From the NCBI GenBank assembly GCA_964384235.1, contig CAYLJX010000005.1:5289-69288 (forward strand): 64,000 bases of DNA, written 5' to 3'. Below are positions 7,587 to 62,618 of the stretch, in pieces; positions within the stretch are counted from its first letter, which is position 1; the number at the start of each line of letters is the position of its first letter. The translations under genes and the position numbers were made by a program. This DNA is from an uncultured Bdellovibrionales bacterium (GTDB lineage Bacteria; Patescibacteriota; Minisyncoccia; Moranbacterales; UBA1568). The notes under the pieces were generated by a model that saw only the letters and a list, made by a program, of their open reading frames with translations, was not told the origin of the DNA and made no database searches.

Positions 7587-8735
7587 TTATTTGCGAATGG
7601 GCATCATGAGATAAATATATCGTTGATCTGGTTTTTGCGTTTCATCCATCATCCGAAGAGCGGCTGGGGTAGTGCTCGCATTCGCCAGAAAGACTATTTT
7701 TTCACCCGAGAGCGCCGAAAGTCCCTCGAGAATGTAGCGCGGATTGAAAACCATCCGAAGCTCTCCCTCTCCCTGAAGAAATTGCACCGGAAGCACCGTC
7801 TGATTTTCCCCGATTTCCTGGGATTGTGATGCGACGATACAGATATTTTTCCCTGTATCGAAAGAGAGCGAAACCTCTCCGGAGCTGTACGACGAAAACG
7901 TGCTGGCGATCTTTATCGCCCGCAACAGATCCTCTTTTTGAAAGATTCCCTGGACAGAGAAGGTTTCCGGGAGAATCTGCTTGTAATCAGGGAATTTTCC
8001 GTTGATGCTCCGAGAAATCACCTGTGCCTCGTCTATCCCGAAGAAAATCTGATTCTCCTCCAGGGCGATCTTCACTTCCTTACTTTCCGGAGTGATGACG
8101 CGGAAAATTTCCTGAAGGGTGTTCGCAGGAATGATAAGAGTGGGATTCTTCTGAAGAAACTCTCGGTAACCAGCCCCGAGATCGGAAAGTATCACCTTTT
8201 CTTCCGCCAACCGGAAACTGTCCGTCGCCACGATATGCATTTCCCCCTCAAAAAATGAGATATACGCCCCGGTAAGTTCGAGTCGAGCCTCATTGATGCT
8301 GACACAAAAAAGAATGCGTGAGAGGGCATTTTTGAGCTCCTGGGCTGGTAAGGCGAAGAAATATTCCTTCTTGTACTGAGGAATGATAGGAAAATCCTTT
8401 CCATCCAACCCTTTCATCTTCATCTGATAGGTCGAAGCGGTCACTTTAAGTGTCTGTCCTTCCGTTTCCAACTCCAACACATCCCCCGAGGGAAGATTAT
8501 GGATGAAATTAGAAAGAATCTTGGCCGGGACCGTGATCCGCCCCTCCCGCTCGATCTTGGCCCCGATATGGGAGATGACACCAATCTCGAGATTGGTGGC
8601 GGAAAGCTTCAATCTTCCGTTCTCCGTCTCCAAAAGAAAGTTACTGAGGATAGGAAGAGTGGTTTGTTTTCCTACGACTCGTTCAAGATGAGAGAGGGCT
8701 CGACTCAGATTTTCCTGCGTACAGACCAGTTTCAT
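7587..8735 (-). CDS. dnaN: DNA polymerase III beta sliding clamp
   Basis: 382 aa; N-terminus MKLVCTQENLSRALSHLERVV...LPILSNFLLE typical of DnaN; immediately downstream of dnaA. Confidence 0.92.
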   Translation of the reverse strand: MKLVCTQENLSRALSHLERVVGKQTTLPILSNFLLETENGRLKLSATNLEIGVISHIGAKIEREGRITVPAKILSNFIHNLPSGDVLELETEGQTLKVTASTYQMKMKGLDGKDFPIIPQYKKEYFFALPAQELKNALSRILFCVSINEARLELTGAYISFFEGEMHIVATDSFRLAEEKVILSDLGAGYREFLQKNPTLIIPANTLQEIFRVITPESKEVKIALEENQIFFGIDEAQVISRSINGKFPDYKQILPETFSVQGIFQKEDLLRAIKIASTFSSYSSGEVSLSFDTGKNICIVASQSQEIGENQTVLPVQFLQGEGELRMVFNPRYILEGLSALSGEKIVFLANASTTPAALRMMDETQKPDQRYIYLMMPIRK

Positions 8736-9005
8736 ACGGTTCCCGTTAATAAGTAATATATTCTCTTATTATATATAAATTTATTATTATGATTAGTGTG
8801 GTGGATATCTGGATAACTCTCTCTTTTGCTTTAGAATAGGTATTTTTTATTCCCATTCTCGGAGAATATATTTTTTGGTTTCAAGGAAACTTTTGTGGAT
8901 AAGGAGAAAGAGTATATTTTTTGTATTTTTTCTCCACGCTCACCGGCAAGTTATCTCCACTTTATTCACTGGAAATTTGAACTTATACACCGGTATTAAC
9001 AGACA
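8736..9005. promoter_or_regulatory. oriC core: AT-rich unwinding element plus DnaA boxes in the dnaA-dnaN spacer
   Basis: Perfect DnaA box TGTGGATAA at 8894-8902; near-perfect boxes cTGGATAAC (8808-8816), GTGGATATC (8801-8809) and TTATCtCCAC (8950-8961); AT-rich tract ttattatatataaatttattattatgatta at 8766-8795. Confidence 0.7.
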
Positions 9006-10427
9006 CTAACTGTAATACAGGCGTTCTTTCAGGACACTAAGTTCTTCTTTGAGGCGGAGATTCGTTTCCCTTCCCGTATCTATCTTTTCAAACGCGTGCA
9101 GGGCGGTCGTGTGGTCACGGCCACCAAGGAGTTCCCCGATGGTGGAAAACGGCGTCTGGAGTTCGCTTCGGAGGAGGTACATCATGACCTGGCGCGGATG
9201 GGCAATCTCTTTTTTCCGGCCCTTTTTCACCAGATCTTCCTTGGTGACACCGTAATAATCGACGATGACCTTGAAAATATCGTCTGACTGGAGATTTTTC
9301 TTGTTGATCTCGATGAGCTGAGCAAGGATTTTCTCCGTATTTTCCAGAGTCGGAGGGAATTTGTGGAATTCCGAGTAGGCGATGACGCGGTTGAGTGCTC
9401 CTTCTAGCTCGCGGATGTTCTGGGTGATGTGTTCGGCGATGTAGCGGAGCGCGTTTTCCTCGATTTGAAAGCCTTTTTCATCCACTTTTGACTGCAGGAT
9501 GGCGAGACGGGTCTCCAGGGTCGGACGGCTGATATCGGTGATCATACCCCCTTCAAAACGGGAACGGAGCCGGTCTTCCAGAGTCGGAATAGCCTTGGGC
9601 GGGCGATCGCTCGAGATGACGATCTGTTTGTTGAGCTGGTACAGGGCATTAAAGATATGGAAAAACTCATTCTGGGTCTTTTCGCGACCGGAGAGAAACT
9701 GCACGTCGTCGATGATGAGGAGATCCATCTGCTGGTAGTATTCCTTGAACTTGTCGATGTTCTGATTCTTGATGGAATCGATGAGTTCGGTGGTGAATCG
9801 TTCGGAAGTGATGTATTTGATGCGTTTTTCCGGAGCATTTTTCACCACTTCGTTGCCGATGGATTGGAGGAGATGGGTCTTTCCCAGGCCGACACCACCA
9901 TAAATGAAGAGCGGGTTGTACACCATCCCGAGGTTTTGTGAAACGGCGTAGCAGGCCGCGCGGGCGAGTTCGTTGTTCTCGGCCACGATGAAATTCTCGA
10001 AGGTGTAGCGGCTGTTGAGATTGGATTCGTGAAAAACAGGCGTACTCGGTGCCTGTGCCGGAGAGCCGAAAAACGGCTTCTCAATGATCTTTTTCCGGAC
10101 AAATCCGGTTTCCACCGATACCGAACCGGGCGCCTTGACGGCATCGATGTTTTTGACGGGATTCTGTGGAGGAAGAGGTTTGTCTTGGGTGATGAGGCAG
10201 CGGATTTCCTGGATGTCCGGCTGGATTGATTTGAGAGCCCGGAGGATGTAGAGATTATACTTATTTTCCAACCATTCCTTGGCAAAGCCGTTCGGGACGG
10301 CGATAGTGACCACCCCGTTTTCATTGCTCAGGACGCTGGTATTCTTGAACCACGTGACGAAATTCGCCTTGGAAATGGAAAGTTCTATCTGTCCCAAAAC
10401 CGCTTTCCAAAGCTCTTCGTTGGTCAT
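9006..10427 (-). CDS. dnaA: Chromosomal replication initiator DnaA
   Basis: 473 aa; AAA+ Walker A GVGLGKTHLLQSIGNE; C-terminal DnaA-box-binding domain; canonical origin context. Confidence 0.95.
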   Translation of the reverse strand: MTNEELWKAVLGQIELSISKANFVTWFKNTSVLSNENGVVTIAVPNGFAKEWLENKYNLYILRALKSIQPDIQEIRCLITQDKPLPPQNPVKNIDAVKAPGSVSVETGFVRKKIIEKPFFGSPAQAPSTPVFHESNLNSRYTFENFIVAENNELARAACYAVSQNLGMVYNPLFIYGGVGLGKTHLLQSIGNEVVKNAPEKRIKYITSERFTTELIDSIKNQNIDKFKEYYQQMDLLIIDDVQFLSGREKTQNEFFHIFNALYQLNKQIVISSDRPPKAIPTLEDRLRSRFEGGMITDISRPTLETRLAILQSKVDEKGFQIEENALRYIAEHITQNIRELEGALNRVIAYSEFHKFPPTLENTEKILAQLIEINKKNLQSDDIFKVIVDYYGVTKEDLVKKGRKKEIAHPRQVMMYLLRSELQTPFSTIGELLGGRDHTTALHAFEKIDTGRETNLRLKEELSVLKERLYYS

Positions 10428-10619
10428 AGAGGTCTGTCTTTAAACAAGTGAAAAGTATTATATCACCTCTTGTTTCCCGAGGCGAGGAGCTGAAAGAGAG
10501 AAATCGTGGATAACCGGTGTATAAGTGGACAACGTCGGGGAATGGCTCTGTGTTGACTTTTTTTGCGTTTGCTGGCACACTGGTAACACATTGTTTTGTC
10601 TTAATCTACATCGAATCGT
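10428..10619. promoter_or_regulatory. dnaA/rpmH divergent promoter region with additional DnaA-box-like sites
   Basis: cGTGGATAA at 10505-10513 and AAGTGGACAA nearby; second half of a bipartite origin as in Bacillus-type oriC. Confidence 0.5.
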
Positions 10620-10760
10620 ATGTCAAAGAGAACGTACCAGCCAAAGGCGAGAAAGCGGACCCGTCGTCACGGCTTTCTTGAGCGGATGCGTACCAAGGGT
10701 GGTCAGGCAGTGATTACCCGTCGTCGCCGACAGGGACGCAAGAAGCTCTCGGTGGCTTAA
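10620..10760 (+). CDS. rpmH: 50S ribosomal protein L34
   Basis: Hand-translated 46-aa [49 protein letters not shown] (below the track size cut-off); classic rpmH-rnpA-yidC-jag order. Confidence 0.95.
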
Positions 10761-10771
10761 AAAAGGGTCGT

Positions 10772-11110
10772 ATGCTGGATCGGCGCTTTCGTCTGAGGAA
10801 AAAGGAAGACTTTGATCGGGTTTTTCGTCAGGGGAAGCCCCTTTTTTTTGGGGAAATCGCCTGTCGGGTGGCGCCTAATGCCCTTCCGCATCTCCGGGTA
10901 GGCTTTTCGTTCAGCAAAAAGTATCTTCCCAAGGCGGTCTCTCGCAATCGCTTGCGCCGCCTTCTTTCGGAGAGCTTGGCTCTTTCCAAGGATCAGTGGC
11001 CGAAAACAGGGGCGGATATCGTGTTTTTTGTCGTAAAAAAACCCGCATCGCTCACACTTGATGGTATACTGCCTGTAGTTTCCATGACTCTGGAAAAGTT
11101 AAACAAATAA
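10772..11110 (+). CDS. rnpA: RNase P protein component
   Basis: 112-aa basic protein; MLDRRFRLRKKEDFDRVFRQGK... and ...RNRLRRLLRE-like motif; downstream of rpmH. Confidence 0.9.
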   Translation: MLDRRFRLRKKEDFDRVFRQGKPLFFGEIACRVAPNALPHLRVGFSFSKKYLPKAVSRNRLRRLLSESLALSKDQWPKTGADIVFFVVKKPASLTLDGILPVVSMTLEKLNK

Positions 11111-11113
11111 GAC

Positions 11114-11851
11114 TTGCTCATTATGATGGAATTTTTCGATACCCTCGTCTATCAGCCGCTCTACAATGTCCTGGTTTTCCTGTATAACGCTGTTCCCGGA
11201 CAGGATTTCGGTATCGCCATCATCCTGACGACGATCGCTCTCAAGACGGTTCTCATCCCGCTTTCCAAACAGCAGATCGTTTCCCAGAAGAAACTCCAGG
11301 AGCTGCAGCCGAAGATGAAGGAGATCCAGCAGAAGCACAAGCACGACAAGGAGCAGCAGACCAAGGCGCTCATGGAGTTCTACAAGGAAAACAAGGTCAA
11401 TCCGTTCGGAGGATGCCTGCCGCTCATCATCCAGCTCATCTTTCTCATCGCGATCTATCGCGTCATCATCAATATTTCCGATGCCGGATTTGTAGTAAAC
11501 GCAAGCGATCTCTACCCGTTCGTGAGCAACCCCGGATCGGTGAACCATCTATTCCTCTCGTTCATGGATCTGACCCGGCCGAACTACGTCCTCGCGCTTC
11601 TTTCGGCGGTAGCCCAGTATTTTCAGACAAAAATGCTTTTCCCAAGCCAAAAGAACGAATCTTCCGAGAAAGAGGACTCAACGCAGCCTGATTTTGCCGC
11701 TATAATGAATAAGCAGATGCTGTATCTCGGTCCCGGCCTCACCTTCTTCATCGGTGTGACCTTTCCGGCAGCTCTCTCGCTCTACTGGCTCTTCTCGACG
11801 CTCTTCATGATTTTCCAGCAGAAATTCATCTTTAACGTACGGAAAGGATAA
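11114..11851 (+). CDS. yidC: Membrane protein insertase YidC/Oxa1 (short form)
   Basis: 245 aa; TM helices and conserved ...KQQIVSQKKLQELQPKMKEIQQKHK...NPFGGCLPLIIQLIFLIAIY...; origin-proximal position. Confidence 0.88.
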   Translation: MLIMMEFFDTLVYQPLYNVLVFLYNAVPGQDFGIAIILTTIALKTVLIPLSKQQIVSQKKLQELQPKMKEIQQKHKHDKEQQTKALMEFYKENKVNPFGGCLPLIIQLIFLIAIYRVIINISDAGFVVNASDLYPFVSNPGSVNHLFLSFMDLTRPNYVLALLSAVAQYFQTKMLFPSQKNESSEKEDSTQPDFAAIMNKQMLYLGPGLTFFIGVTFPAALSLYWLFSTLFMIFQQKFIFNVRKG

Positions 11852-16738: not shown

Positions 16739-16839
16739 TAACGGGCATCGACCCGATTTTACCGTCACCTCGCTCGCCTGCCTGCCGGTAGGCAGGGAAA
16801 CGAAAATGAATTTTCGTTTCACTCGCTACGTTCGGTAAT

Positions 16840-16865
16840 AAAAACCTCCCAAAAGGAGGTTTTTA
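16840..16865. terminator. Bidirectional terminator between the convergent wzy-like and PBP genes
   Basis: aaaaaCCTCCcaaaaGGAGGttttt. Confidence 0.6.
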
Positions 16866-16892: not shown

Positions 16893-19436
16893 TCAGAAGT
16901 CCACTTTGATATCCTTCTTGTCCTTCGCTTTGTTTCCATTATCATCCTCCAGTTCCACTTCTATCGTCAGCGTCGTGTGGTTCTTGTCCGCAGGAACGTT
17001 GTAGGAGACGGAATAGGGCTTGGAACCGGTCGAACCGGCATCGGAACCGTCGACGGTATACTTCACCCGTTTGACACCGTACGGGGCATCGACACTTGAA
17101 CTGAGAGCGAAAGAAGCGCTGTTACTGTCCCCGACAGTGAGTTTGACGGATGGTTGGTAGTCCTTGAAATCATCTTCCTTACACTCGTCTTTGGGCGGTT
17201 CGGCGAGGACGACGTCCTTTTTCTTGTCATACCAGTCCTCGACGCCTTTTTCCCAGTTCTTGTACTGTGCGTCGCGATCCGGTTTTTCCGGGATGGGTCC
17301 GCGCGGGTTCTCCCGATTGACATAAAAGAGGATGTCGTGGTCGCTGATGAAATCCTTCTTGTCTACGTCCTTGTCCCGGCAGTACTTGTTGGCCAGGCAG
17401 TATTTGTCATCCTCATCCGGAATCTCGCATACTTTCAAGTCTTCTTCCATCTCGAGCTTGCCATTGAGCATCGGTTTGTTGATTTTTCCGTCCTCATCCC
17501 CGATCTCATCGTCGGAATCGTACTTGGGAAATCCTTCCATGGCGTAGTTTCCGAGGGTCTTGTCCAGGAAGGCCCGCCAGATAGGGGCGGCGACATTGAC
17601 ACCGTCGGCCCCGGCCGCCATCGCGGAATTGTCGTTGTTGCCGGCCCAGACGCCGACCGCGAGTCCGGGAGTGTATCCGATCGTCCAGCCGTCACGGAAC
17701 TCGTTGGTCGTACCGGTCTTGGCGGCCACGGCCCGGTTGTCGAAGCGCAGCGGATTATTCTCGCCGAACACCCATGCCCGATTCTCATTGTTCGACATGA
17801 CCGAATCAAGCATCGCCACATATTTTTCCTCCACGACCCGTTCTCCGGCATCCGTTTTGAATTCTTCCACGAGGTTTCCTTTAGGATCCTCGATGCGGAG
17901 AATAGCGGTTTTTTGATGCTTGATTCCGCCGGTGGCAAGCGTGCTGTAGGCGCTCACATGATCGAGAAGCTTCACTTCGCCACCGCCCAAGACGAGTGAG
18001 AGTCCGAGACGATCGGGGGAATTGAGTCCGGTGATGCCGAGGTTTTTAGCCATTTGGATAGCGTCTTTGACACCGACCAGGTAGAGGGTCTTGACGGCCG
18101 GGATGTTGAGCGATCCGCCGAGCGCCTTGGCCATAGAGAGCGGACCGTGGAACTTCCCGTCGTAGTTGTTGGGTTCGTAGCTTTTCCCTTCAGCGGTCTC
18201 GAACTGGGTTTTGACGTCGTAGAGCATCGTTTCCGGGATGTAGCCTTTGGAAAAGGCGGTGAGATAGACATAGGGCTTGAAGGAAGAACCCGGCTGCCGG
18301 TCGCGGATGGCGACATTGACGTTGCCATCGATGCTTTCGTCGAAGTAGTCCTTGGAACCGACCATGGCGAGGATCTGACCGGTCTTGGGATCCATGGCGA
18401 CCAAGGCGGCGTTCGAGGCCTTCCATTTCTTGTTTTTTTCCGCTCCCTCACGCACCGCCTGTTCGGCGATCTGCTGTTTGTCCCAGTCGAGCGTGGTGAT
18501 GACCTTGTACCCGCCCTGTTCCACCGCGCTGTCACCGTACTTCTGTTGCAGATAGTCCTTGATGTACATGACGAAGTGCGGGGCGGCGATGATGTCCTTC
18601 TGAGGTTTGATCTTTTCAATGGTATTGGCATTGATGGCCTCGTTCATCTGCTCCTCGGTGATGTAGCCGAGCTTCTGCATCTGCTTGAGAGCAAAGGCTT
18701 GACGGCCGGAAAGGGCGTCGGTGTGCGATCCATACGGCGAATAGTAGGTCGTCGCCTGTGGGAGAGCGGCGAGGAGGGCCGCCTCGTCGAGGGTGAGTTC
18801 CCGGGCCGGTTTGCCGAAGAACGTCTGGGCAGCCGCCTCGATACCGTAGGCGTTGGAACCGTAGGGGATTTCGTTGAGATACATCGCCAAGATCTCATCC
18901 TTGGAGAACTTGGTCTCGATCTCGAGGGAGAGGATGGCTTCCTTCATCTTGCGGATGAGGGTCTTTTCGTTGGTGAGCAGGGAGTTTTTGACGAACTGCT
19001 GGGTGATGGTCGAACCGCCCTGGGTCTTGCCGAGCTGGACGATGTCCTTGAAGATCGAGCGCAGGATAGAGGTGATCTTGATACCGTGGTGGTTGTAGAA
19101 GTCCTGGTCCTCGAGGGAAAGGGTGGCGGCGCGGACGACCTCCGGGATATCCTTGAAATCGATGATGGTGCGCTTCTCCTCGCCGTGCACCTCATAGAGG
19201 AGGTGAGTGCCGGTCCGGTCATAGATCTTGGTCGATTCGGCGATGAAGCGCTTGTTGACGCTTCCCGGGCTGGGGAGGTCCTTGGCGATATACGCGAAGG
19301 CGCCGACGGTCGTGAGGAACCCGAGGGCGAAGAGAATGATCAGGGTTTTCCAGGCGATGCCCCAGAACTTCGATTTCGGCTTGTTTTCGGTGTTTGTTTC
19401 AAACTTCGGCCTTCTGTGGAAACGAAAAAAACGCAT
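16893..19436 (-). CDS. Class A penicillin-binding protein (transglycosylase/transpeptidase) with a C-terminal extension
   Basis: 847 aa; N-terminal TM helix; GT51 motifs (EDQDFYNHHGI, GGSTITQQ); transpeptidase SSFKP and KTGTT motifs; about 200 extra C-terminal residues, acidic and Ig-like. Confidence 0.9.
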   Translation of the reverse strand: MRFFRFHRRPKFETNTENKPKSKFWGIAWKTLIILFALGFLTTVGAFAYIAKDLPSPGSVNKRFIAESTKIYDRTGTHLLYEVHGEEKRTIIDFKDIPEVVRAATLSLEDQDFYNHHGIKITSILRSIFKDIVQLGKTQGGSTITQQFVKNSLLTNEKTLIRKMKEAILSLEIETKFSKDEILAMYLNEIPYGSNAYGIEAAAQTFFGKPARELTLDEAALLAALPQATTYYSPYGSHTDALSGRQAFALKQMQKLGYITEEQMNEAINANTIEKIKPQKDIIAAPHFVMYIKDYLQQKYGDSAVEQGGYKVITTLDWDKQQIAEQAVREGAEKNKKWKASNAALVAMDPKTGQILAMVGSKDYFDESIDGNVNVAIRDRQPGSSFKPYVYLTAFSKGYIPETMLYDVKTQFETAEGKSYEPNNYDGKFHGPLSMAKALGGSLNIPAVKTLYLVGVKDAIQMAKNLGITGLNSPDRLGLSLVLGGGEVKLLDHVSAYSTLATGGIKHQKTAILRIEDPKGNLVEEFKTDAGERVVEEKYVAMLDSVMSNNENRAWVFGENNPLRFDNRAVAAKTGTTNEFRDGWTIGYTPGLAVGVWAGNNDNSAMAAGADGVNVAAPIWRAFLDKTLGNYAMEGFPKYDSDDEIGDEDGKINKPMLNGKLEMEEDLKVCEIPDEDDKYCLANKYCRDKDVDKKDFISDHDILFYVNRENPRGPIPEKPDRDAQYKNWEKGVEDWYDKKKDVVLAEPPKDECKEDDFKDYQPSVKLTVGDSNSASFALSSSVDAPYGVKRVKYTVDGSDAGSTGSKPYSVSYNVPADKNHTTLTIEVELEDDNGNKAKDKKDIKVDF

Positions 19437-19547
19437 AGAAAATACAGTTAAGTGTCTCCATTACCAAGCGTAGCGAGCGAAACGAAGGCTTGTTTTCGTT
19501 TCCGAGCGAAGCGCCGGTAAAAACGGACCTGTCGTTATTGTATACCA

Positions 19548-25547: not shown

Positions 25548-25564
25548 ATTCTTGGCAGACTTGC

Positions 25565-25692
25565 CTATTTGGCGCATTCCTTCGTTGCAAGTTCCGGTGC
25601 GCGACGCCGTACTTGCATCAGTACGGCTCGGCGTGCCATCGGGCACCCCTCGCTTCGCTCCTCGCTTGCGCCTCGGACTGCATCCAAATATG
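25565..25692. repeat. Structured intergenic repeat, family A, copy 1
   Basis: CTATTTGGCGCATTCCTTCGTTGCAAGTTCCGGTGCGCGACGCCGTACTTGCATCAGTACGGC...CTTGCGCCTCGGACTGCATCCAAATATG is near-identical to 52334-52439 and has a diverged copy at 27963-28055. Confidence 0.6.
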
Positions 25693-25787
25693 CAAGTCTT
25701 TACGATTGCAGGTAAAGATTTTGAACAAAAGAATTGTAGCCTATCTGAGCCAAAAAGAAAACCCCTCCACTCGGGAGGGGTGGAGGG

Positions 25788-27650: not shown

Positions 27651-27962
27651 ATTTTTGGCTTATATATGGGGTGAAATACGGACTCGTGTCACTTGATTGT
27701 ACCACTGCTTGACACAAAAACAAAGATGTGCTATTCTCAGGGGTCGTTTCGAAAAGCTCGAAACCGGTTTTTTGCAAGGGTGGCTTCATCTGTAGACAAT
27801 TGGGGATCACTATCTTTTGTCCTCAATCATGGGAACAACTGTCCAGACACGGGTAGGGTGGTTTCGGCTGCGCTATTCCTCGACACTGTTCCTTTCCTCC
27901 GACTCCTAATGTTAGAGGGTTGTCTACAGGTGAAATTACCTTTGGTGGCAGGAGTTTCTGTG

Positions 27963-28055
27963 TCGGCACATTCCTTTGTTGCTGCTCCGGTGCGCGACAA
28001 CGTACCCTACGAGTACGTCTTACTGTGCTCCTCGCAGCGCCTCGGACTGTACTCG
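27963..28055. repeat. Structured intergenic repeat, family A, diverged copy 3
   Basis: GGCACATTCCTTTGTTGCTGCTCCGGTGCGCGACAACGTACCCTACGAGTACGTC...GCGCCTCGGACTG aligns to copies 1 and 2 with a compensatory change in the internal hairpin. Confidence 0.45.
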
Positions 28056-28120
28056 ACACAAAAACTCTTTTAAGTTGACTGTATACTCTTCGTTAGTCGC
28101 ATAGAAAAGTTAGTCGCATA

Positions 28121-28152
28121 GAAAAAAGAAGCTCTGCGGAGCTTCTTTTTTG
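28121..28152. terminator. Bidirectional terminator downstream of the tandem PilB gene
   Basis: aaaaaaGAAGCTCTGCGGAGCTTCtttttt; preceded by a direct repeat GTTAGTCGCATAGAAAA x2. Confidence 0.6.
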
Positions 28153-28178: not shown

Positions 28179-31100
28179 CTATTCTTCCGTGACGCGTTCG
28201 ATCTCTTCGAGAGTGGTCTTGCCTTCGAGGACGGAGAGAATGCCGTCCTGGGCGAGGGTGATCATGCCGTTCTCGATCGCCTTGCTTTCGATCTCGTGGG
28301 CGAGCGCTCCTTGGGTGATCAGGGCGGCGATGTCTTTGTCGAGAGAGAGGACCTCGCTTATGATGACCTGCCCGTTGAAGCCGCTCCCGTTGCATTCGGG
28401 GCAGCCCTTGGCACGGAAGAGGGAAACAGTGTCAGATACCTGTTTTTTGAGTGCGGGTGGCAGCGTGGCGATGATTTTTTCCATGAGCGCGCGTTCTTCC
28501 GGGGTGGTGTCGGATTTTTCTTTGCAGTGGTCGCAGAGGCGGCGCACCAGGCGCTGCGCGATGAAGGCGTTCCCGGCGTTCGCGAGATCGTCGCTGCTGA
28601 TACCCATGCCGAGAAGGCGGGGAATGGTGCCTGAGGCGTTGTTGGCATGGAGCGTCGAGAGGACGAGGTGGCCGGTGACGGCGGCCTGGACGGCGATTCC
28701 CGCGGTCTCCTGGTCGCGGATCTCACCGATCATGAGGATGTCAGGGTTCTGCCGGAGAAGCGAACGGAGTGCGGTGGCGAAGGTGTATCCGTCCGCCTCG
28801 TTGATCTGGGTCTGGAGCAGTCCCGGGATCTGATACTCGATCGGGTCCTCGACGGTGATGATCTTGATTTCCGGCGTGTTGATGTGGGAGAGGAGGCTGT
28901 AGAGCGTGGTAGTCTTGCCGGAGCCGGTCGGACCGGCGTTGAGGATGATGCCATAGGGCTTCTTCACGGCTTCCAGGATGCGGTCGAGGTTTTCCTGGCG
29001 GATGTCGAGGGACTCGAGCTTGAGGGAAGTGGCGGACTTGTTGAGGAGACGCATCACGACCGTCTCGCCGAAGCCGCCGAGGATGAGCGAGAGACGGACA
29101 TCGATCTTGGTGTCGGTGACGGAGCCGTAGGGTTCCTGGAGGGTGAGAGAGAAGCGTCCGTCCGTGACCCCGGCGCGTTCGCCTGATTTCAATCCGGCGA
29201 AGATCTTGATCTGGCCGAGGATGGCCGGGTATTCGTCCAGAGGAAAGGAGAGGGCGTTCTTGAGAATGCCGTCGATACGGTAGCGGACCAGGACGTTCTC
29301 TTCGGTCGGTTCGATGTGGATGTCGCCGGCCCGCAGGAGGAGCGCCGCCGCAAAGACCGTCTTGAGGAAGGTCTGCTGGTCGATCGTCCCGACGTAGGCG
29401 GCGAGGTCGTCGAGCGAGGCGAGGTGGGTTTCGGTTTCCGCGAGGATCGCCGGCGAGAGGAAGGAGTGCGACGAGAGGGCGCTCGGCATGAGTTCCGCGT
29501 AGACTTTCTTGAGCATGTCGCCCTGATCCGCCACGCGCCAGACTTCCTCGAAGGTGGTGATGCCCTCGATGGCCTTGAGGATACCGTCCTGGGTCATGGT
29601 GATCATACCGTCCTCGAGGGCGACCTTGGTGATCTCGTCTTCGGTGCCGAGATCGTTGATGATCTTGATGAGGGTCGGGCTCATGACGAAGACTTCGAAG
29701 ATGCCGATCCGGCCACGATAGCCGGTGAAGTGACACTCCGCGCAGCCGGCCGCTTTCCAGAGCTTGTCGATGGTCTTGGGGACGGTGATCTTGGCCTTGG
29801 GGGAAACGATGGAGATGAGCTGCTTGAGGGAGGCGACGGTCTCTTCGGCCGGGGCGTAGGACTCTCTGCAGGACGGGCAGAGCTTGCGGACGAGGCGCTG
29901 CGCGATGAGGGCGTTGACGGAAGAAGTGATGAGGTTCGGTTTGACGCCGAGCTCGAGGAGGCGCGGGATGGAGGCCGGGGCGCTGTTGGCGTGGAGCGTC
30001 GAGAGGACGAGGTGGCCGGTGAGGGCAGCGTTGATGGCGATGTCGGCGGTCTCGTCGTCTCGGATCTCGCCGACGAGGATGACATCCGGGTCCTGGCGGA
30101 CGACGGCGCGCAGGGCTTGGGCGAAGGTGTAGCTCTTGCTTTTGGAGACCTCCGTCTGGAGGATGCCGGGAAGGTTGTATTCGATCGGATCCTCGACGGT
30201 GATGATCTTGACGCCGGGCTGGTTGATGGTGTTGAGCAGACTGTAGAGTGTGGTGGTCTTGCCGGAGCCGGTCGGACCGGTGTTGAGGATCATTCCGTGA
30301 GGCTTCTCGATCTGCTTGCGCACTTCCTCATAGGCGAGGCCGCGCAGTCCGAGGTCTTCTACTTCGACGATGATGTCGTCGCTACTGAGGAGACGCATGT
30401 TGAGGCTTTCACCGTGCTTGCCGGGGATGCTGTTGACACGGATGTCGATACGCTTTTCATCCATGGTGACGAAGAAGTGTCCGTCCTGGGCCCGGTCCCG
30501 CACGTTGAGGCGCATCTTGCCGAGCATCTTGATGCGGGAGAGCGCGAGGTGATAGATATCCGGGGAAAATTTCCCCACGTCTTGCAGGACGCCGTCGATA
30601 CGGTAGCGGAGGCGCGCATCATCTTCTTCCGGTTCGATATGGATGTCGCTCGCCTTCATCTTCTTGGCGCCGGCCAGGATGACTTCCAGGATGTTCGAGA
30701 CGGAAGTCTGGTGCAGGTTGTCCTTGAGCTGGAGGAGGGCGCCGAAGTTCTCCTCGAATTTCTCGAGATCGTTTCCCGAGAGGTTGACCCGTATCAGGTC
30801 CAGGCTTTCCAAGAGCGAGGTCCGGGTGTAGGCGGCGAGGGCTTTCTCGAAGGACGGTCGGGAAACGACGTGGAGAGTGGTATCCCAGCCATGCCCGGAG
30901 GCGAGTGTCTGAACGTACTCGAGCGTTGCCTGGTTTCCAGGATCGACGATGGCGATGTGGGTCGTCTCGCCGGTCTTCTGGAAGAGGGCGACCTCATGTT
31001 TCTTTGCGTCTTCCTTGGGAATGAGCGCGAGGTCCTCGGGATCGAGCGGGAAGAGGTGGAGATCGATATAGGAGAGACCGTTTTTGGCGGCGAGTGTCGC

Positions 31101-31208
31101 GGCCTCCTCTTCGATCGAGGCTTCGTGCATCTTCTTGAGGAGCGCGTCGGCCCTGGCTTGCTTTTCGGGATCGCCGATTGAAGGGATGGAGGAGATGACT
31201 TTGGGCAT
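28179..31208 (-). CDS. Tandem-fused double GspE/PilB-family secretion ATPase (N1-N2-CTD-N2-CTD in one polypeptide)
   Basis: 1009-aa uninterrupted ORF. An N-terminal T2SSE_N domain is followed by two complete ATPase modules, each with Walker A GPTGSGKTTTLYSLL, an Asp box, Walker B DPDVILVGEIRD / NPDILMIGEIRD, a His box TGHLVLSTLHAN and a tetracysteine motif (CPSC...CAEC and CDHC...CPEC). Confidence 0.85.
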   Translation of the reverse strand: MPKVISSIPSIGDPEKQARADALLKKMHEASIEEEAATLAAKNGLSYIDLHLFPLDPEDLALIPKEDAKKHEVALFQKTGETTHIAIVDPGNQATLEYVQTLASGHGWDTTLHVVSRPSFEKALAAYTRTSLLESLDLIRVNLSGNDLEKFEENFGALLQLKDNLHQTSVSNILEVILAGAKKMKASDIHIEPEEDDARLRYRIDGVLQDVGKFSPDIYHLALSRIKMLGKMRLNVRDRAQDGHFFVTMDEKRIDIRVNSIPGKHGESLNMRLLSSDDIIVEVEDLGLRGLAYEEVRKQIEKPHGMILNTGPTGSGKTTTLYSLLNTINQPGVKIITVEDPIEYNLPGILQTEVSKSKSYTFAQALRAVVRQDPDVILVGEIRDDETADIAINAALTGHLVLSTLHANSAPASIPRLLELGVKPNLITSSVNALIAQRLVRKLCPSCRESYAPAEETVASLKQLISIVSPKAKITVPKTIDKLWKAAGCAECHFTGYRGRIGIFEVFVMSPTLIKIINDLGTEDEITKVALEDGMITMTQDGILKAIEGITTFEEVWRVADQGDMLKKVYAELMPSALSSHSFLSPAILAETETHLASLDDLAAYVGTIDQQTFLKTVFAAALLLRAGDIHIEPTEENVLVRYRIDGILKNALSFPLDEYPAILGQIKIFAGLKSGERAGVTDGRFSLTLQEPYGSVTDTKIDVRLSLILGGFGETVVMRLLNKSATSLKLESLDIRQENLDRILEAVKKPYGIILNAGPTGSGKTTTLYSLLSHINTPEIKIITVEDPIEYQIPGLLQTQINEADGYTFATALRSLLRQNPDILMIGEIRDQETAGIAVQAAVTGHLVLSTLHANNASGTIPRLLGMGISSDDLANAGNAFIAQRLVRRLCDHCKEKSDTTPEERALMEKIIATLPPALKKQVSDTVSLFRAKGCPECNGSGFNGQVIISEVLSLDKDIAALITQGALAHEIESKAIENGMITLAQDGILSVLEGKTTLEEIERVTEE

Positions 31209-32472: not shown

Positions 32473-32729
32473 ACGATCGGAAAGGCAAAAGTCAAAAGAC
32501 AAAAGTCAAAACGGGCTGAAACTGGGGAGCGGGTAAGAAATCAAGATACCAGAGGAAAACGTTCGTGTCAAACGAAGACGCATTTCACAAGAAGTAATAA
32601 TATAGAGTACTATGAGAATGTTTTTTATTTGTCATTCCGAGCGATTCCGCGTTGCGGAAGAGTCGAGGAATCTATTTAAGCACAAAAAAGATCCCTCGGC
32701 TTCGCTCGGGATGACAGTTTTATAAGCAT

Positions 32730-37929: not shown

Positions 37930-37940
37930 CACCGATAGGT

Positions 37941-37965
37941 GTCATCCCGGACTCGATCCGGGATC
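37941..37965. repeat. Short hairpin repeat, family C, copy 1
   Basis: TCATCCCGGACTCGATCCGGGATC (8-bp stem, 5-nt loop) recurs at 47617-47641 with a conserved 3' flank (C)YSGTAGWAA. Confidence 0.45.
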
Positions 37966-38018
37966 CTGTAGTAAATAAGTAAGATCCTGAACCAAGTTCA
38001 GGATGACAATATATAAAT

Positions 38019-46477: not shown

Positions 46478-46490
46478 ACCAGGTAGGAGC

Positions 46491-46664
46491 GTCTTCCGTA
46501 ATTTCTTTTTTCTTCCCTTTCCTTCCGCCGAACATGTCCGACTCACTCTGCCGAACGGGGAGCTGTCCTGTCGAGACCATCCGTCACGCTCGACCGTTAC
46601 CGGCTCGCTCGTCGCACATGTGACCGACGTCAGCTGGCGAAGAGAAAAAGAAATTACGGAAGAC
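46491..46664. repeat. MITE-like element: 25-bp terminal inverted repeats flanking ~123 bp
   Basis: GTCTTCCGTAATTTCTTTTTTCTTC (46491-46515) versus its reverse complement GAAGAGAAAAAGAAATTACGGAAGAC (46639-46664), with one indel. Confidence 0.5.
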
Positions 46665-46674
46665 TTCTTTGCTT

Positions 46675-47616: not shown

Positions 47617-47641
47617 AGGGTCATCCCGGACTCGATCCGGG
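47617..47641. repeat. Short hairpin repeat, family C, copy 2
   Basis: Same TCATCCCGGACTCGATCCGGGATC hairpin as at 37941; followed by the terminator GACCCCGATttttATCGGGGTttttt (47652-47690). Confidence 0.45.
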
Positions 47642-47720
47642 ATCTCGTAGAAACACCAAAAAGACCCCGATTTTTATCGGGGTTTTTGCTTTTTATAAGC
47701 CACAAATCATCTCTCTAGTC

Positions 47721-51741: not shown

Positions 51742-52323
51742 ATGGAAAATCCATACGTTTCTTCGTCATCGTCGGTTCCGGTGAAACGGCACTCCGGCGT
51801 CGTCAAGTGGGCGCTCGTCATCGGTATCGCCATCGTCATCAACCTCTTTCTCACGTACCTCGTGCGTGTGATCTATCACGAGCCGGAATTCGAGGGTTTC
51901 TGCCCCGAGGAGCAGGTCAACGAAGCCATCGAGACGAAAGATGAGTGTCTCCAGGTGGGCGGGCAGTGGAACGAGAACGTCGATGCCAAGCGTCCGATGA
52001 TCCAGGGAGAGACCCCGCAGCCTATTGGTTATTGCAACCCGAACTTCACCTGCAGCAGGAATTACGAGGAGGCGGCCAAAGTCTACAACCGGAACGTCTT
52101 CATCGTGTTCGTGACGGTAGGGATCCTACTTCTGGTCGCAAGTATCTTTCTTTCCGGAGTGGAAGCCATCTCGCTCGGTCTCTCCTTCGGCGGCGTGCTC
52201 GCGCTCGTCGTCGGGTCCATGTGGTACTGGTCGGATATGAACGATATCCTGCGCGTCATCGTTCTGGGTGCGGCGCTTCTAGGATTGTTGTTTGTTACTT
52301 GGAAGAAATTCAGAAACGAATAG
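51742..52323 (+). CDS. Hypothetical membrane protein (3 TM, Cys-containing extracytoplasmic loop)
   Basis: 193-aa ORF with hydrophobic helices; no family assignment. Confidence 0.4.
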   Translation: MENPYVSSSSSVPVKRHSGVVKWALVIGIAIVINLFLTYLVRVIYHEPEFEGFCPEEQVNEAIETKDECLQVGGQWNENVDAKRPMIQGETPQPIGYCNPNFTCSRNYEEAAKVYNRNVFIVFVTVGILLLVASIFLSGVEAISLGLSFGGVLALVVGSMWYWSDMNDILRVIVLGAALLGLLFVTWKKFRNE

Positions 52324-52333
52324 AGAAATCTTT

Positions 52334-52439
52334 CTATTTGGCGCATTCCTTCGTTGCAAGCTCCGGTGCTCGACGCCGTACTTGCATCAGTACGGCTTTC
52401 TCTACTCCTCACTTGCGCCTCGGACTGCATCCAAATATG
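52334..52439. repeat. Structured intergenic repeat, family A, copy 2
   Basis: Near-identical to 25565-25692 apart from a ~30-nt internal indel. Confidence 0.6.
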
Positions 52440-52475
52440 AAAATTTTCGTAAAAAGAAGGTAGTTTCAGTTACAT

Positions 52476-53078
52476 ATGCAAGAAACCAAAGAAACCAAAG
52501 AAACTTTAGTTCCTCAGGAAAATGTTCCGGAGGAAACAAAAAAAGATTCTTCCAAAGAAGGCCTGTTTGGGGCACTTCTGATGATTATCGTCATCGTGCT
52601 GATGATCGTGGCGCTTGGCCTCGTCGGATGGTACGGGTACGGGAAGTGGCAGGGAAAACAGGTAAAGGAACAGGCACCTTCGATTACGACGCTCAAATCG
52701 AACGGTTTTCAGCCGATGCAGGAAGAAAAACCCGAACAGACTGCGGCAGAGGAGCCGAAAAGGGAAGAAGTGAAACTGGAAGCCGTAAAAGACGCGAAGA
52801 CTGTCCAAATAAGTGTTCTCAACGGCGGGGCAGCCAAGGGGAGCGCTGGCGTGGTGGCGGATCTGCTCAAGAAGGAGGGGTATACGAAAGTGACCGCTGG
52901 CAACACGACGGCTGACTATACCGGAACGACGGTCTATTACGGGAGCGGCCTGGAGAAAGAAGCCGAGGCCCTGAAAACGAGCCTTGTCAAAAAGTACCCT
53001 CAAGCGACGATCAAACCGGCAGTAGCGACCAACAAGGAAACGACCACGGCCCCGCTTACGGTCATCCTCGGGAAGTAA
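52476..53078 (+). CDS. LytR_C (LytR/CpsA/Psr C-terminal) domain membrane protein
   Basis: N-terminal TM helix, then ...KTVQISVLNGGAAKGSAGVVADLLKKEGYTKVTAGNTTADYTGTTVYYG..., matching the LytR_C signature. Confidence 0.6.
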   Translation: MQETKETKETLVPQENVPEETKKDSSKEGLFGALLMIIVIVLMIVALGLVGWYGYGKWQGKQVKEQAPSITTLKSNGFQPMQEEKPEQTAAEEPKREEVKLEAVKDAKTVQISVLNGGAAKGSAGVVADLLKKEGYTKVTAGNTTADYTGTTVYYGSGLEKEAEALKTSLVKKYPQATIKPAVATNKETTTAPLTVILGK

Positions 53079-60652: not shown

Positions 60653-60669
60653 CTATCCCTGATCGCTTT

Positions 60670-61215
60670 ATGGACTTTACGGACTTGAAAAACTTTAAAG
60701 ACTTGAAAGGATTCACGCTCTTCGAAGTCATCCTTTACCTCGCCATCTTTTTTTTGATGGCGGTCGCCCTGTTGAATTTTTCCTGGGACATGCTGGACCT
60801 CGGGACCAAGGATCGGACGCTCCGGACGACCGTGTCCGATGCGCGCTTCATAAGCGAGCGGCTCACGTCGCTCATCCGAACCTCGTCCGGCGTGGATGAC
60901 GGTGCCTCGGTCCTGGATGATGACAATGGACGACTGGTGCTTACGAAGCTCGGTTCGAGTGATACGGTGACGATCGATATCCAGAACGGCCTGGTGACCG
61001 TGACGGAGACGGGGCAGCCGGCAATGGCACTTCACTCCGCTGATACGGAGGTGCCGATACTCAGGTTTCAGAAGTACGGCTCGGCCGCTGATGGTTCCGA
61101 GTATGCGGGATTCTCGTTTACGCTCCAGTCGGCCGGATCTGGAACGACCCGCGCTCCGTATGAGGCGACGACGACGCTTCGGGGCGGAGCGTTCTTGAGA
61201 AATAATGGTCTCTAA
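60670..61215 (+). CDS. Type IV minor pilin-like protein with extended leader MDFTDLKNFKDLKG|FTLFEV
   Basis: Internal ATG 60670; 14-aa leader then G|FTLFE(+5) and a hydrophobic helix. Confidence 0.65.
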   Translation: MDFTDLKNFKDLKGFTLFEVILYLAIFFLMAVALLNFSWDMLDLGTKDRTLRTTVSDARFISERLTSLIRTSSGVDDGASVLDDDNGRLVLTKLGSSDTVTIDIQNGLVTVTETGQPAMALHSADTEVPILRFQKYGSAADGSEYAGFSFTLQSAGSGTTRAPYEATTTLRGGAFLRNNGL

Positions 61216-61235
61216 TCCTGATTCTCGGAACCTTT

Positions 61236-61655
61236 ATGGACTTTACGGACTTGAAAAACTTTACGAACTCGAAGGGTTTTGTTGCAATCATCACCGTTCT
61301 GACGCTTCTCGTGTTCTCGCTTTCGCTCACGCTCGCGACCACGTACCTCTCCATCGGTGAGGCGAAAAGCGCCCTCGCGCTCTCACAGGGGGAAGCGGCA
61401 CTCGCGCTCACGGAAGGCTGTGCGGAGGACGCACTCATCCTGAGCGGACGTGACGAGAATTATACAGGAGGGAGCTATTCATATCTCGGCGGTGCGTGCG
61501 CGGTGGATATAAGCAAGGACCTTTTGGAGTGGACGATCGATGTCGTCGGTACCAGGGATGGTTTCGAACGGCACCTTGAAATCGTGGTGCTGCGCGTACC
61601 GGGCCTCCTCGGATTGCCGGCGACACTTACGCTTCAGAGCTGGCTCGAGAAATGA
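61236..61655 (+). CDS. Pilin-like protein with the same extended leader MDFTDLKNFTNSKG|FVAIITVL
   Basis: First 28 nt are identical to the 60670 gene; hydrophobic helix after KGF; no Glu at +5. Confidence 0.55.
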   Translation: MDFTDLKNFTNSKGFVAIITVLTLLVFSLSLTLATTYLSIGEAKSALALSQGEAALALTEGCAEDALILSGRDENYTGGSYSYLGGACAVDISKDLLEWTIDVVGTRDGFERHLEIVVLRVPGLLGLPATLTLQSWLEK

Positions 61656-62515: not shown

Positions 62516-62618
62516 GCTGATATAATGAAATTGTCATGCTGAACTTGTTTCAGCATCTTTTCCGGGAAAACATTGTAAAGATTCCGAAACAAGTTCGGAA
62601 TGACGGGTCAAACGTTGT

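Follow-up and report, generated by a model that had tools for sequence, protein, structure and literature searches.

Integron attC sites are imperfect palindromes, 57-141 nt long, in which structure is more conserved than sequence and one strand folds better. Long stem-loops, TA at each terminus and the occurrence of filled as well as empty sites characterise elements of the MITE/ERIC type (PMC3184786), and REPINs consist of two conserved REP arms of 20-40 nt, usually tagged by GTAG or CGTC, around a variable spacer (PMC3733652), with compensatory changes being common in their hairpins (PMC3116915). The repeat analysed here, Family A, occurs in three copies in the window, as the whole 64-kb stretch of DNA under analysis is called, and is a real, previously undescribed hairpin-forming intergenic repeat family with no named parent, best classed as being of the MITE/ERIC/REPIN kind. 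On balance it is probably a dispersed imperfect-palindrome repeat, non-coding and non-autonomous, that constitutes mobile or recently mobile DNA in a few Candidatus Moranbacteria lineages; a search of the literature on CPR repeats, MITEs or hairpins retrieved nothing specific.

The three copies on the + strand that the original prediction had put forward are borne out by the sequence, with limits at 25557-25699 (copy 1), 52321-52451 (copy 2) and 27950-28069 (copy 3). With up to three mismatches allowed, the 18-mer GGCGCATTCCTTCGTTGC matches exactly the three copy sites, three or more matches being reached in none of 100 shuffles, and an 18-mer of the 3' block equally matches at copy sites only (four matches observed, a number found in 0 of 100 shuffles), which is more than expected by chance. 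A covariance model built from four sequences scores the window copies with 124-141 bits and nothing else in the window above 16 bits. Covariance-model and nhmmer scans with filters off revealed no fourth copy, full or partial, in the window, and the density of Family A in the available sequence is low (3 per 64 kb).

Copy 1 is a full-length palindromic element of 143 nt (R1 128.8 bits, R2 124.4 bits) with the outer stem AGACTTGC.TATTTGG / CCAAATA.GCAAGTCT, copy 2 spans 131 nt (R1 140.5 bits) and is closed by GAAATCTTTC.TATTTGG / CCAAATA.GAAAATTTTC, and the diverged copy 3 covers about 120 nt (R1 123.7 bits) with GGAGTTTCTGTGTCG / CGACACAAAAACTC as its outer stem. The complementary ends TATTTGG/CCAAATA noticed initially are real, the helix being longer than noted with stems of 16-18 bp. 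Copies 1 and 2, 27 kb apart, are 97% identical over 64 nt (25565-25628 versus 52334-52397) and possess the same apical 8-bp hairpin, GCCGTACT-TGCATC-AGTACGGC, at 25606-25627 and 52375-52396 respectively; the predicted double change from C-G to A-U in this hairpin of copy 3 is genuine (alignment columns 55/74). As to the insertion of about 30 nt claimed to distinguish copy 1 from copy 2, a 30-nt segment (25628-25657) which carries the mini-hairpin GTGCC-ATCG-GGCAC (25633-25646) and occurs once in the window is indeed private to copy 1 in the alignment, but the net gain is 22 nt, since copy 2 has 8 nt in its place. While the cores of copies 1 and 2 are 97% identical, their outermost stem segments differ, each still being self-complementary, and copies 1 and 3 have the flank TGGCAG in common; this combination could derive from gene conversion between copies or from palindrome correction by template switching.

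Folded from either strand, each copy forms one long rod-shaped hairpin composed of the outer stem of 16-18 bp, a conserved core with purine-rich internal loops on one strand and the short apical hairpin. In an alignment of six members, namely the three window copies, L055a, L055b and L062, standard pairs occupy 97.7% of the pair cells, and 20 of the 39 pairs display changes on both sides (double compensatory), such as the replacement of UCC/GGA by UUC/GAA in L055b; none of 500 shuffles was as good, and slid partners left 31-42% paired. Structure and covariation are genuine and strong. Best conserved is the interior adjoining the outer stem, on the minus strand 5'-GAUGCAGUCCGAGGCGCAAG...CUUGCAACGAAGGAAUGCGCC-3' with GA-rich internal loops, and the outer stems are only loosely alike among the copies, with the shared pattern TAG(R)A(C)yTTyC...ATTTGG. 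Covariation does not decide between RNA and mobile DNA, because hairpin arms of mobile DNA such as REPINs also vary in a compensatory manner (PMC3116915).

The RNA folding z-scores range from -6.7 to -9.5 for the minus strand and from -4.1 to -7.4 for the plus strand (-7.6 and -5.1 in copy 3), and those of DNA folding from -3.1 to -6.4 across the copies (-6.4 for the minus and -5.1 for the plus strand of copy 1). In every copy the minus strand folds 6-13 kcal/mol better than the plus strand, its minimum-energy fold is well defined with an ensemble frequency of 0.12-0.33, and an invariant U-G pair is formed on the minus strand only. Selection on one particular strand is suggested; a strong strand asymmetry was abandoned, as the 14 G-U versus 2 A-C pairs counted at first became 8 versus 6 on the 38 pairs that the consensus structures of the two strands share, a ratio which makes the strand call weak.

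All six members are located in short spacers between co-directional genes and are very probably co-transcribed with their neighbours in either orientation, the '+' version being the one in the mRNA for four copies and the '-' version for two. In the window, the genes around copies 1 and 3 (T2SSE, RuvB, bPH_2, YebC) are on the minus strand and those around copy 2 on the plus strand, in agreement with the proposed independence of the element from the orientation of the neighbouring genes. Read on the minus strand, copy 1 is situated between the terminator of the bPH_2 gene and the start codon of YebC (25547), with its end 9 nt before the ATG and a promoter-like box, conserved in relatives, upstream at about 25725-25705. 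Copy 3, on the same strand, is positioned between the duplicated T2SSE ATPase gene and ruvB, starts approximately 12 nt past a GTATACA box and precedes a conserved leader of about 165 nt upstream of ruvB. Copy 2 resides between a gene for a protein of 193 aa and the LytR_C gene, both on the plus strand, and its first three bases are the TAG stop codon of the former. Promoter-like -10 boxes precede copies 1, 3 and L055b; in the consensus scans, no copy was flanked by a promoter-like site, and a single weak internal site resembling a terminator turned up. Among the 58 window ORFs scanned against Pfam, no transposase, RAYT, integrase, recombinase or HUH-nuclease domain was detected.

By its RuvB homologues, the organism belongs to Candidatus Moranbacteria / Moraniibacteriota, a lineage of the CPR (Patescibacteria). 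The window includes the neighbourhood of the replication origin at 7587-11851, with dnaN (7587-8735) and dnaA (9006-10427) on the minus and rnpA (10772-11110) and yidC (11114-11851) on the plus strand. A switch in the sign of the GC skew together with this dnaN-dnaA/rnpA-yidC region places the origin near 10.5 kb, with the three copies on one replichore. Though they share a replichore, an orientation tied to replication was rejected, as L062 has the same syntenic block with its copy in the opposite orientation. The claim of a single orientation accordingly holds within the window (n=3) and fails with L062, where the conserved ruvB neighbourhood contains the copy the other way round.

The surroundings of copy 3 contain further features of their own. 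Relatives with RuvB 86-93% identical share with the window the non-coding stretch of about 165 nt upstream of ruvB (27775-27944, minus strand; L065 95-255, L060 9720-9880), which is highly conserved in contrast to the spacer around it. Pairing of CCUGUAGACAA with UUGUCUACAG closes this stretch, which may be a structured leader or an ncRNA and had no Rfam match at E-values up to 1. Beside copy 3, at 28093-28128, the direct repeat GTTAGTCGCATAGAAAA occurs twice, with the T2SSE terminator on one side and the promoter-like GTATACA box on the other; absent from L065, it could be a candidate operator. The T2SSE gene itself (28179-31208, minus strand) encodes a protein of 1009 aa with two tandem T2SSE (PilB-like) ATPase domains, a fusion conserved in L060, and bears an internal DNA duplication with a period of 1344 nt and 76-79% identity.

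Outside the window, exact-pattern scans covering the JGI metagenomes and 185,579 species-representative genomes identified one other organism (L002, identical with L055); by this measure Family A is not widespread. A wide family was rejected, as the other pattern matches, L001 and 56 of the 57 metagenome loci L003-L059, fell by chance inside genes. The pattern demanded about 21 exact bases and missed diverged copies; L055b and L062 came from the covariance model. L055 is a Moraniibacteriota genome assembled from a metagenome in which L055a is located downstream and L055b (85 bits with the four-sequence model) upstream of ftsA, and in L062 a diverged copy follows immediately upon the stop codon of ruvB (28 bits, and 50 bits with a six-sequence model). 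Insertion into pre-existing palindromes, whereby the stems would be inverted unrelated flanks, was dropped as an explanation: L055a and L062, at different loci and in different species, share TAGAACCTTCA.

Ends of the form TA|G(R)A...T(Y)C|TA are found in copy 2, L055b and L062, and on one side only in L055a. TA is present at both ends of copy 2, L055b and L062 and at one end of L055a, copy 1 and copy 3, with TA itself being part of the palindrome. The form of the ends is compatible with a TA target duplication but no proof of it; a clean target-site duplication was not found among the copies, and no filled/empty pair had alignable flanks.

Previously described sequences did not account for the repeat. 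With Rfam 15 at the gathering threshold, a tRNA-Ser was the only match in the whole window, and in E-value mode, with E up to 10 allowed, copies 1 and 2 reached an E of 0.33 or worse at best, far below the family thresholds, so that a known RNA family is ruled out. The empty searches of plasmids, phages, viral contigs and E. coli equally dismiss a known IS end, plasmid or phage sequence. A coding fragment or small ORF is refuted by frame-breaking indels of 1 and 22 nt between copies and by the loss of the minus-strand ATG in copy 3. The known IS end and the coding fragment named in the original prediction as outcomes that would speak against it thus both found no match, and the Rfam scan which it proposed as a check returned no family.

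The T2SSE-ruvB-(small gene)-bPH_2-yebC-ruvC neighbourhood is syntenic in relatives, the Family A element is not. The bPH_2-yebC spacer that harbours copy 1 measures 75 bp in L063 and 123 bp in L062 and is taken up by an unrelated long inverted repeat in L060, and the T2SSE-ruvB spacer, site of copy 3, is empty in L065 (RuvB 93% identical) and L060. Downstream of ruvB the situation is reversed, L062 being occupied by its copy, inverted relative to ruvB, and the window having 48 bp only. The site of L055a downstream of ftsA is empty in L066, L069 and L072 with FtsA 88-92% identical to L055, and at the site of L055b upstream of ftsA only a 3' half-relic (nhmmer E 3e-7) persists in L066 and L067, thus in a relative with FtsA 91% identical; an intact copy is absent from 86 kb of sequence of those relatives. 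More distant relatives, L078 and L079, are empty at the site of copy 2, with spacers of 6 and 29 bp.

Variation extends into the species. The contigs L074 and L075 belong to the same species as the window (malic enzyme 100% identical, DNA about 97%) and retain of copy 2 the first ~33 nt only, followed by a short different spacer up to the LytR_C start codon. Two Logan contigs assembled from short reads of the organism in the window, L076 and L077, end within copy 2, which is the expected behaviour at a repeat. Gain, loss, truncation and decay of copies therefore take place on the timescale of strains and species, and the element, missing from relatives' spacers and with copy 2 partly deleted within the species, is dispensable at each locus. 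In the adjacent LytR_C gene, the start (window 52482-52508 versus L074 6105-6122) has one more 9-nt unit (GAAACCAAA) in the window than in the same-species contigs, which amounts to a 3-aa length polymorphism.

Multiple copies, of which some are near-identical, in non-syntenic positions and either orientation within transcribed spacers, together with insertion variants and decay, argue for a mobile repeat rather than a conserved regulatory RNA. Such a repeat would spread by transposition in trans, with the enzyme encoded elsewhere in the genome, and the TA|G(R)A... ...T(Y)C|TA ends of four of the six copies would be the counterparts of the TA-flanked termini of ERIC-type MITEs that they resemble. 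The complementarity of the hairpin might be kept because mobilisation needs it, or by palindrome correction during replication. Upon insertion the hairpin would join a 5' UTR (copies 1 and 3, L055b) or a 3'/intercistronic region (copy 2, L055a, L062) and may incidentally alter mRNA stability, processing or translation. Several observations speak against the mobile-repeat reading, namely the lack of a transposase, RAYT or integrase in the 58 window ORFs and of a parent IS with matching ends, and outer stems conserved only loosely, unlike the terminal inverted repeats of classical MITEs; nor did a clean target duplication emerge, TA being part of the palindrome and copies 1 and 3 being without TA on one side. 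A firm MITE call would take a parent transposase and a demonstrated target duplication, and variable arms around a conserved interior are unusual. The strong conservation of the core between species, internal-loop nucleotides included, could reflect function instead of recent spread or transfer, and the better folding of all copies on one strand hints at a strand-specific single-stranded form. It is conceivable, with a small probability, that the hairpin acts as a single strand, either as a new ssDNA- or RNA-mediated mobile element in a genome-reduced CPR organism or as a portable RNA module adopted by the host, a reading which fits an interior conserved more than the arms, the one strand that always folds better and stems that stay complementary despite cores 97% identical. 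In the host-adopted case, a protein would be bound by the conserved GA-rich loops (5'-UCC GA G GC...AA C GAA GGA-3') together with the invariant U-G pair.

Other functions have to be weighed against mobility. All six copies are in co-directional spacers and should be transcribed, the end of copy 1 is placed 9 nt before the YebC ATG, copies 1, 3 and L055b follow promoter-like -10 boxes, and the structure is strongly conserved; these features would suit a host-selected cis-acting RNA module in mRNAs, which affects processing or stability as RNase III substrate or 3'-end protector or serves as translational or attenuator element in the 5' UTR. Perfect stems of 16-18 bp are of the type that RNase III cleaves, and an rnc gene is present in a related locus. 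Such a module is nevertheless rather unlikely, as the orientation in the mRNA is mixed (four '+' versus two '-'), the neighbouring genes (YebC, RuvB, LytR_C, FtsA) are unrelated, and copies are missing from the same spacers of close relatives, with copy 2 partly deleted within the species. A family of trans-acting sRNA genes, transcribed from one strand and acting via GA-rich (minus) or CU-rich (plus) loops, could explain the well-defined minus-strand fold with its z-scores and ensemble frequency, the U-G pair invariant on this strand only and a core which is kept across species including unpaired nucleotides. The candidate loops resemble a Shine-Dalgarno or anti-Shine-Dalgarno sequence, with GAGGAG / GAAGGA motifs and, on the + strand of L055b, CACCTCCTT. 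On the other hand, promoter-like sites beside the copies did not emerge from the consensus scans, one weak internal terminator-like site apart, for four of the six copies transcription would have to run antisense to closely packed genes, the family occurs sporadically, without synteny and in a state of decay, the strand asymmetry on strand-neutral pairs is weak (8 G-U versus 6 A-C), and Rfam holds no relative, all of which renders sRNA genes quite improbable.

Highly improbable is a role as folded single-stranded DNA site for recombination or priming (integron attC, phage attP, ssi signal), recognised by an enzyme of the host or of a mobile element. The consistently better folding of one strand, the size of 120-150 nt and a conserved structure with variable outer-stem sequence recall attC, and direct copies occur in pairs on either side of one or two genes (copies 1 and 3 around bPH_2-RuvB, L055a and L055b around ftsA); yet the window encodes no integrase or recombinase, the copies are dispersed among housekeeping genes with no array, their ends are without GTTRRRY / RYYYAAC core sites, the conserved part is the interior, the reverse of attC, and the orientation relative to the origin is inconsistent, with L062 inverted versus the window in the same syntenic block. 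Each of these three alternatives is at odds with the mixed orientation, with the absence of promoters or terminators belonging to the copies themselves or with the dispensability of individual copies. A mobile repeat of the MITE/ERIC/REPIN kind thus stays the preferred reading; of the initial wording 'structured RNA/sRNA or REP-like', the structure with covariation and the REP-like/MITE-like behaviour are retained, and the sRNA part is unsupported.

Genomes of CPR/Patescibacteria are small and streamlined and usually described as repeat-poor, and to our knowledge their non-coding elements are almost unstudied. The window holds at least three families of palindromic intergenic repeats. The second family is distributed over four intergenic spacers (32630-32716, 37940-38008, 47620-47690 and 62533-62604) and consists of REPIN-like small-hairpin doublets bounded by TGTCATCC...GGATGACA (e.g. 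GTCATCCCGGACTCGATCCGGGATC). The third, GGAAACGAAA..TTCGTTTC.CTCGCTACG.T.GGTAAT, is present at 16795-16845 (+) and 19455-19505 (-), two inverted copies that flank a penicillin-binding-protein gene (16893-19436), and at a different locus in L060 (9615-9665). Between an M48 peptidase gene and the gene that follows, a separate long hairpin (46486-46669) consists of a GC-rich interior of 134 nt enclosed by a perfect stem of 20 bp, GTCTTCCGTAATTTCTTTTT / AAAAAGAAATTACGGAAGAC, and the same-species contig L074 begins inside it; as a fourth member of Family A it was rejected, the alignment being limited to the generic outer stem. An unrelated perfect inverted repeat of 20 bp, GCCCCGCACTAACTTTGCTT / AAGCAAAGTTAGTGCGGGGC, encloses an AT-rich loop in the bPH_2-yebC spacer of L060 (12960-13100), and such spacers appear to be recurrent sites of long hairpins. 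Tandem repeats with a period of 9 nt (CTTTAYGGA / CTTGAAAAA) are located at 60657-60731 and 61232-61288, about 570 nt apart, in the region of the pilin genes.

As Family A shows insertion/deletion polymorphism within a species and breaks short-read assemblies, it is useful for strain typing and the finishing of genome assemblies, and it can equally serve to guard against false sRNA or riboswitch calls and to search for its mobilising enzyme. Should the hairpins change how the neighbouring housekeeping genes yebC, ruvB and ftsA are expressed, regulatory variation would arise from them in organisms that have few regulators.

Compared with described systems, Family A resembles attC in being an imperfect palindrome with structure conserved over sequence and one strand folding better, but has neither R'/R'' core sites (RYYYAAC / GTTRRRY) nor a cassette array or intI, and its interior, not the stem base, is conserved. 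With REPINs, REP doublets mobilised by RAYT, it has in common that it is hairpin-forming, non-coding, multi-copy and extragenic with compensatory changes (PMC3116915), and the hairpin of REPINs is thought to matter in a single-stranded intermediate, a further likeness. Unlike in REPINs, the arms of Family A are variable and the interior is conserved, the ends are ATAG, with GTAG once, and the 64-kb window contains no RAYT gene. Family A differs from the classical MITEs (Correia/CREE, Nezha, Chunjie, RUP) by having no conserved terminal inverted repeat shared with an identified IS, no direct-repeat duplication shown and a low copy number in the available sequence; it corresponds to them with a size below 200 bp without transposase, a hairpin predicted to be very stable, sites that are filled in one genome and empty in a close relative, and overlap with gene ends, a stop codon being supplied or shared in copy 2 and L055a. 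The family members of about 120-151 nt also agree with MITEs in general, which are smaller than approximately 400 bp with no transposase or conserved ORF, and their filled sites have empty counterparts in L063, L062, L060, L065, L066, L069, L072, L078 and L079, as is typical of MITEs (PMC3184786).

From the enterobacterial ERIC/IRU (RU-1) repeats of 127 bp and the ERIC-type MITEs, Family A is set apart by the lack of sequence similarity, the host phylum CPR, poorly conserved outer arms with the centre best conserved and a target duplication that is not demonstrated. Copy 2 had no match in 5,426 complete E. coli genomes (sensitive blastn, 'distant' mode), and the ERIC2 primer sequence is absent from the window. 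Both are nevertheless imperfect palindromes, of about 125 bp, which fold into one long stem-loop, both occupy transcribed intergenic spacers in either orientation, and the positions of both vary between related genomes. ERIC size variants arise by internal insertions, as in Family A. Elements of the ERIC type have TA at both termini (PMC3184786), to which the TA-bounded ends of most Family A copies are a likeness.
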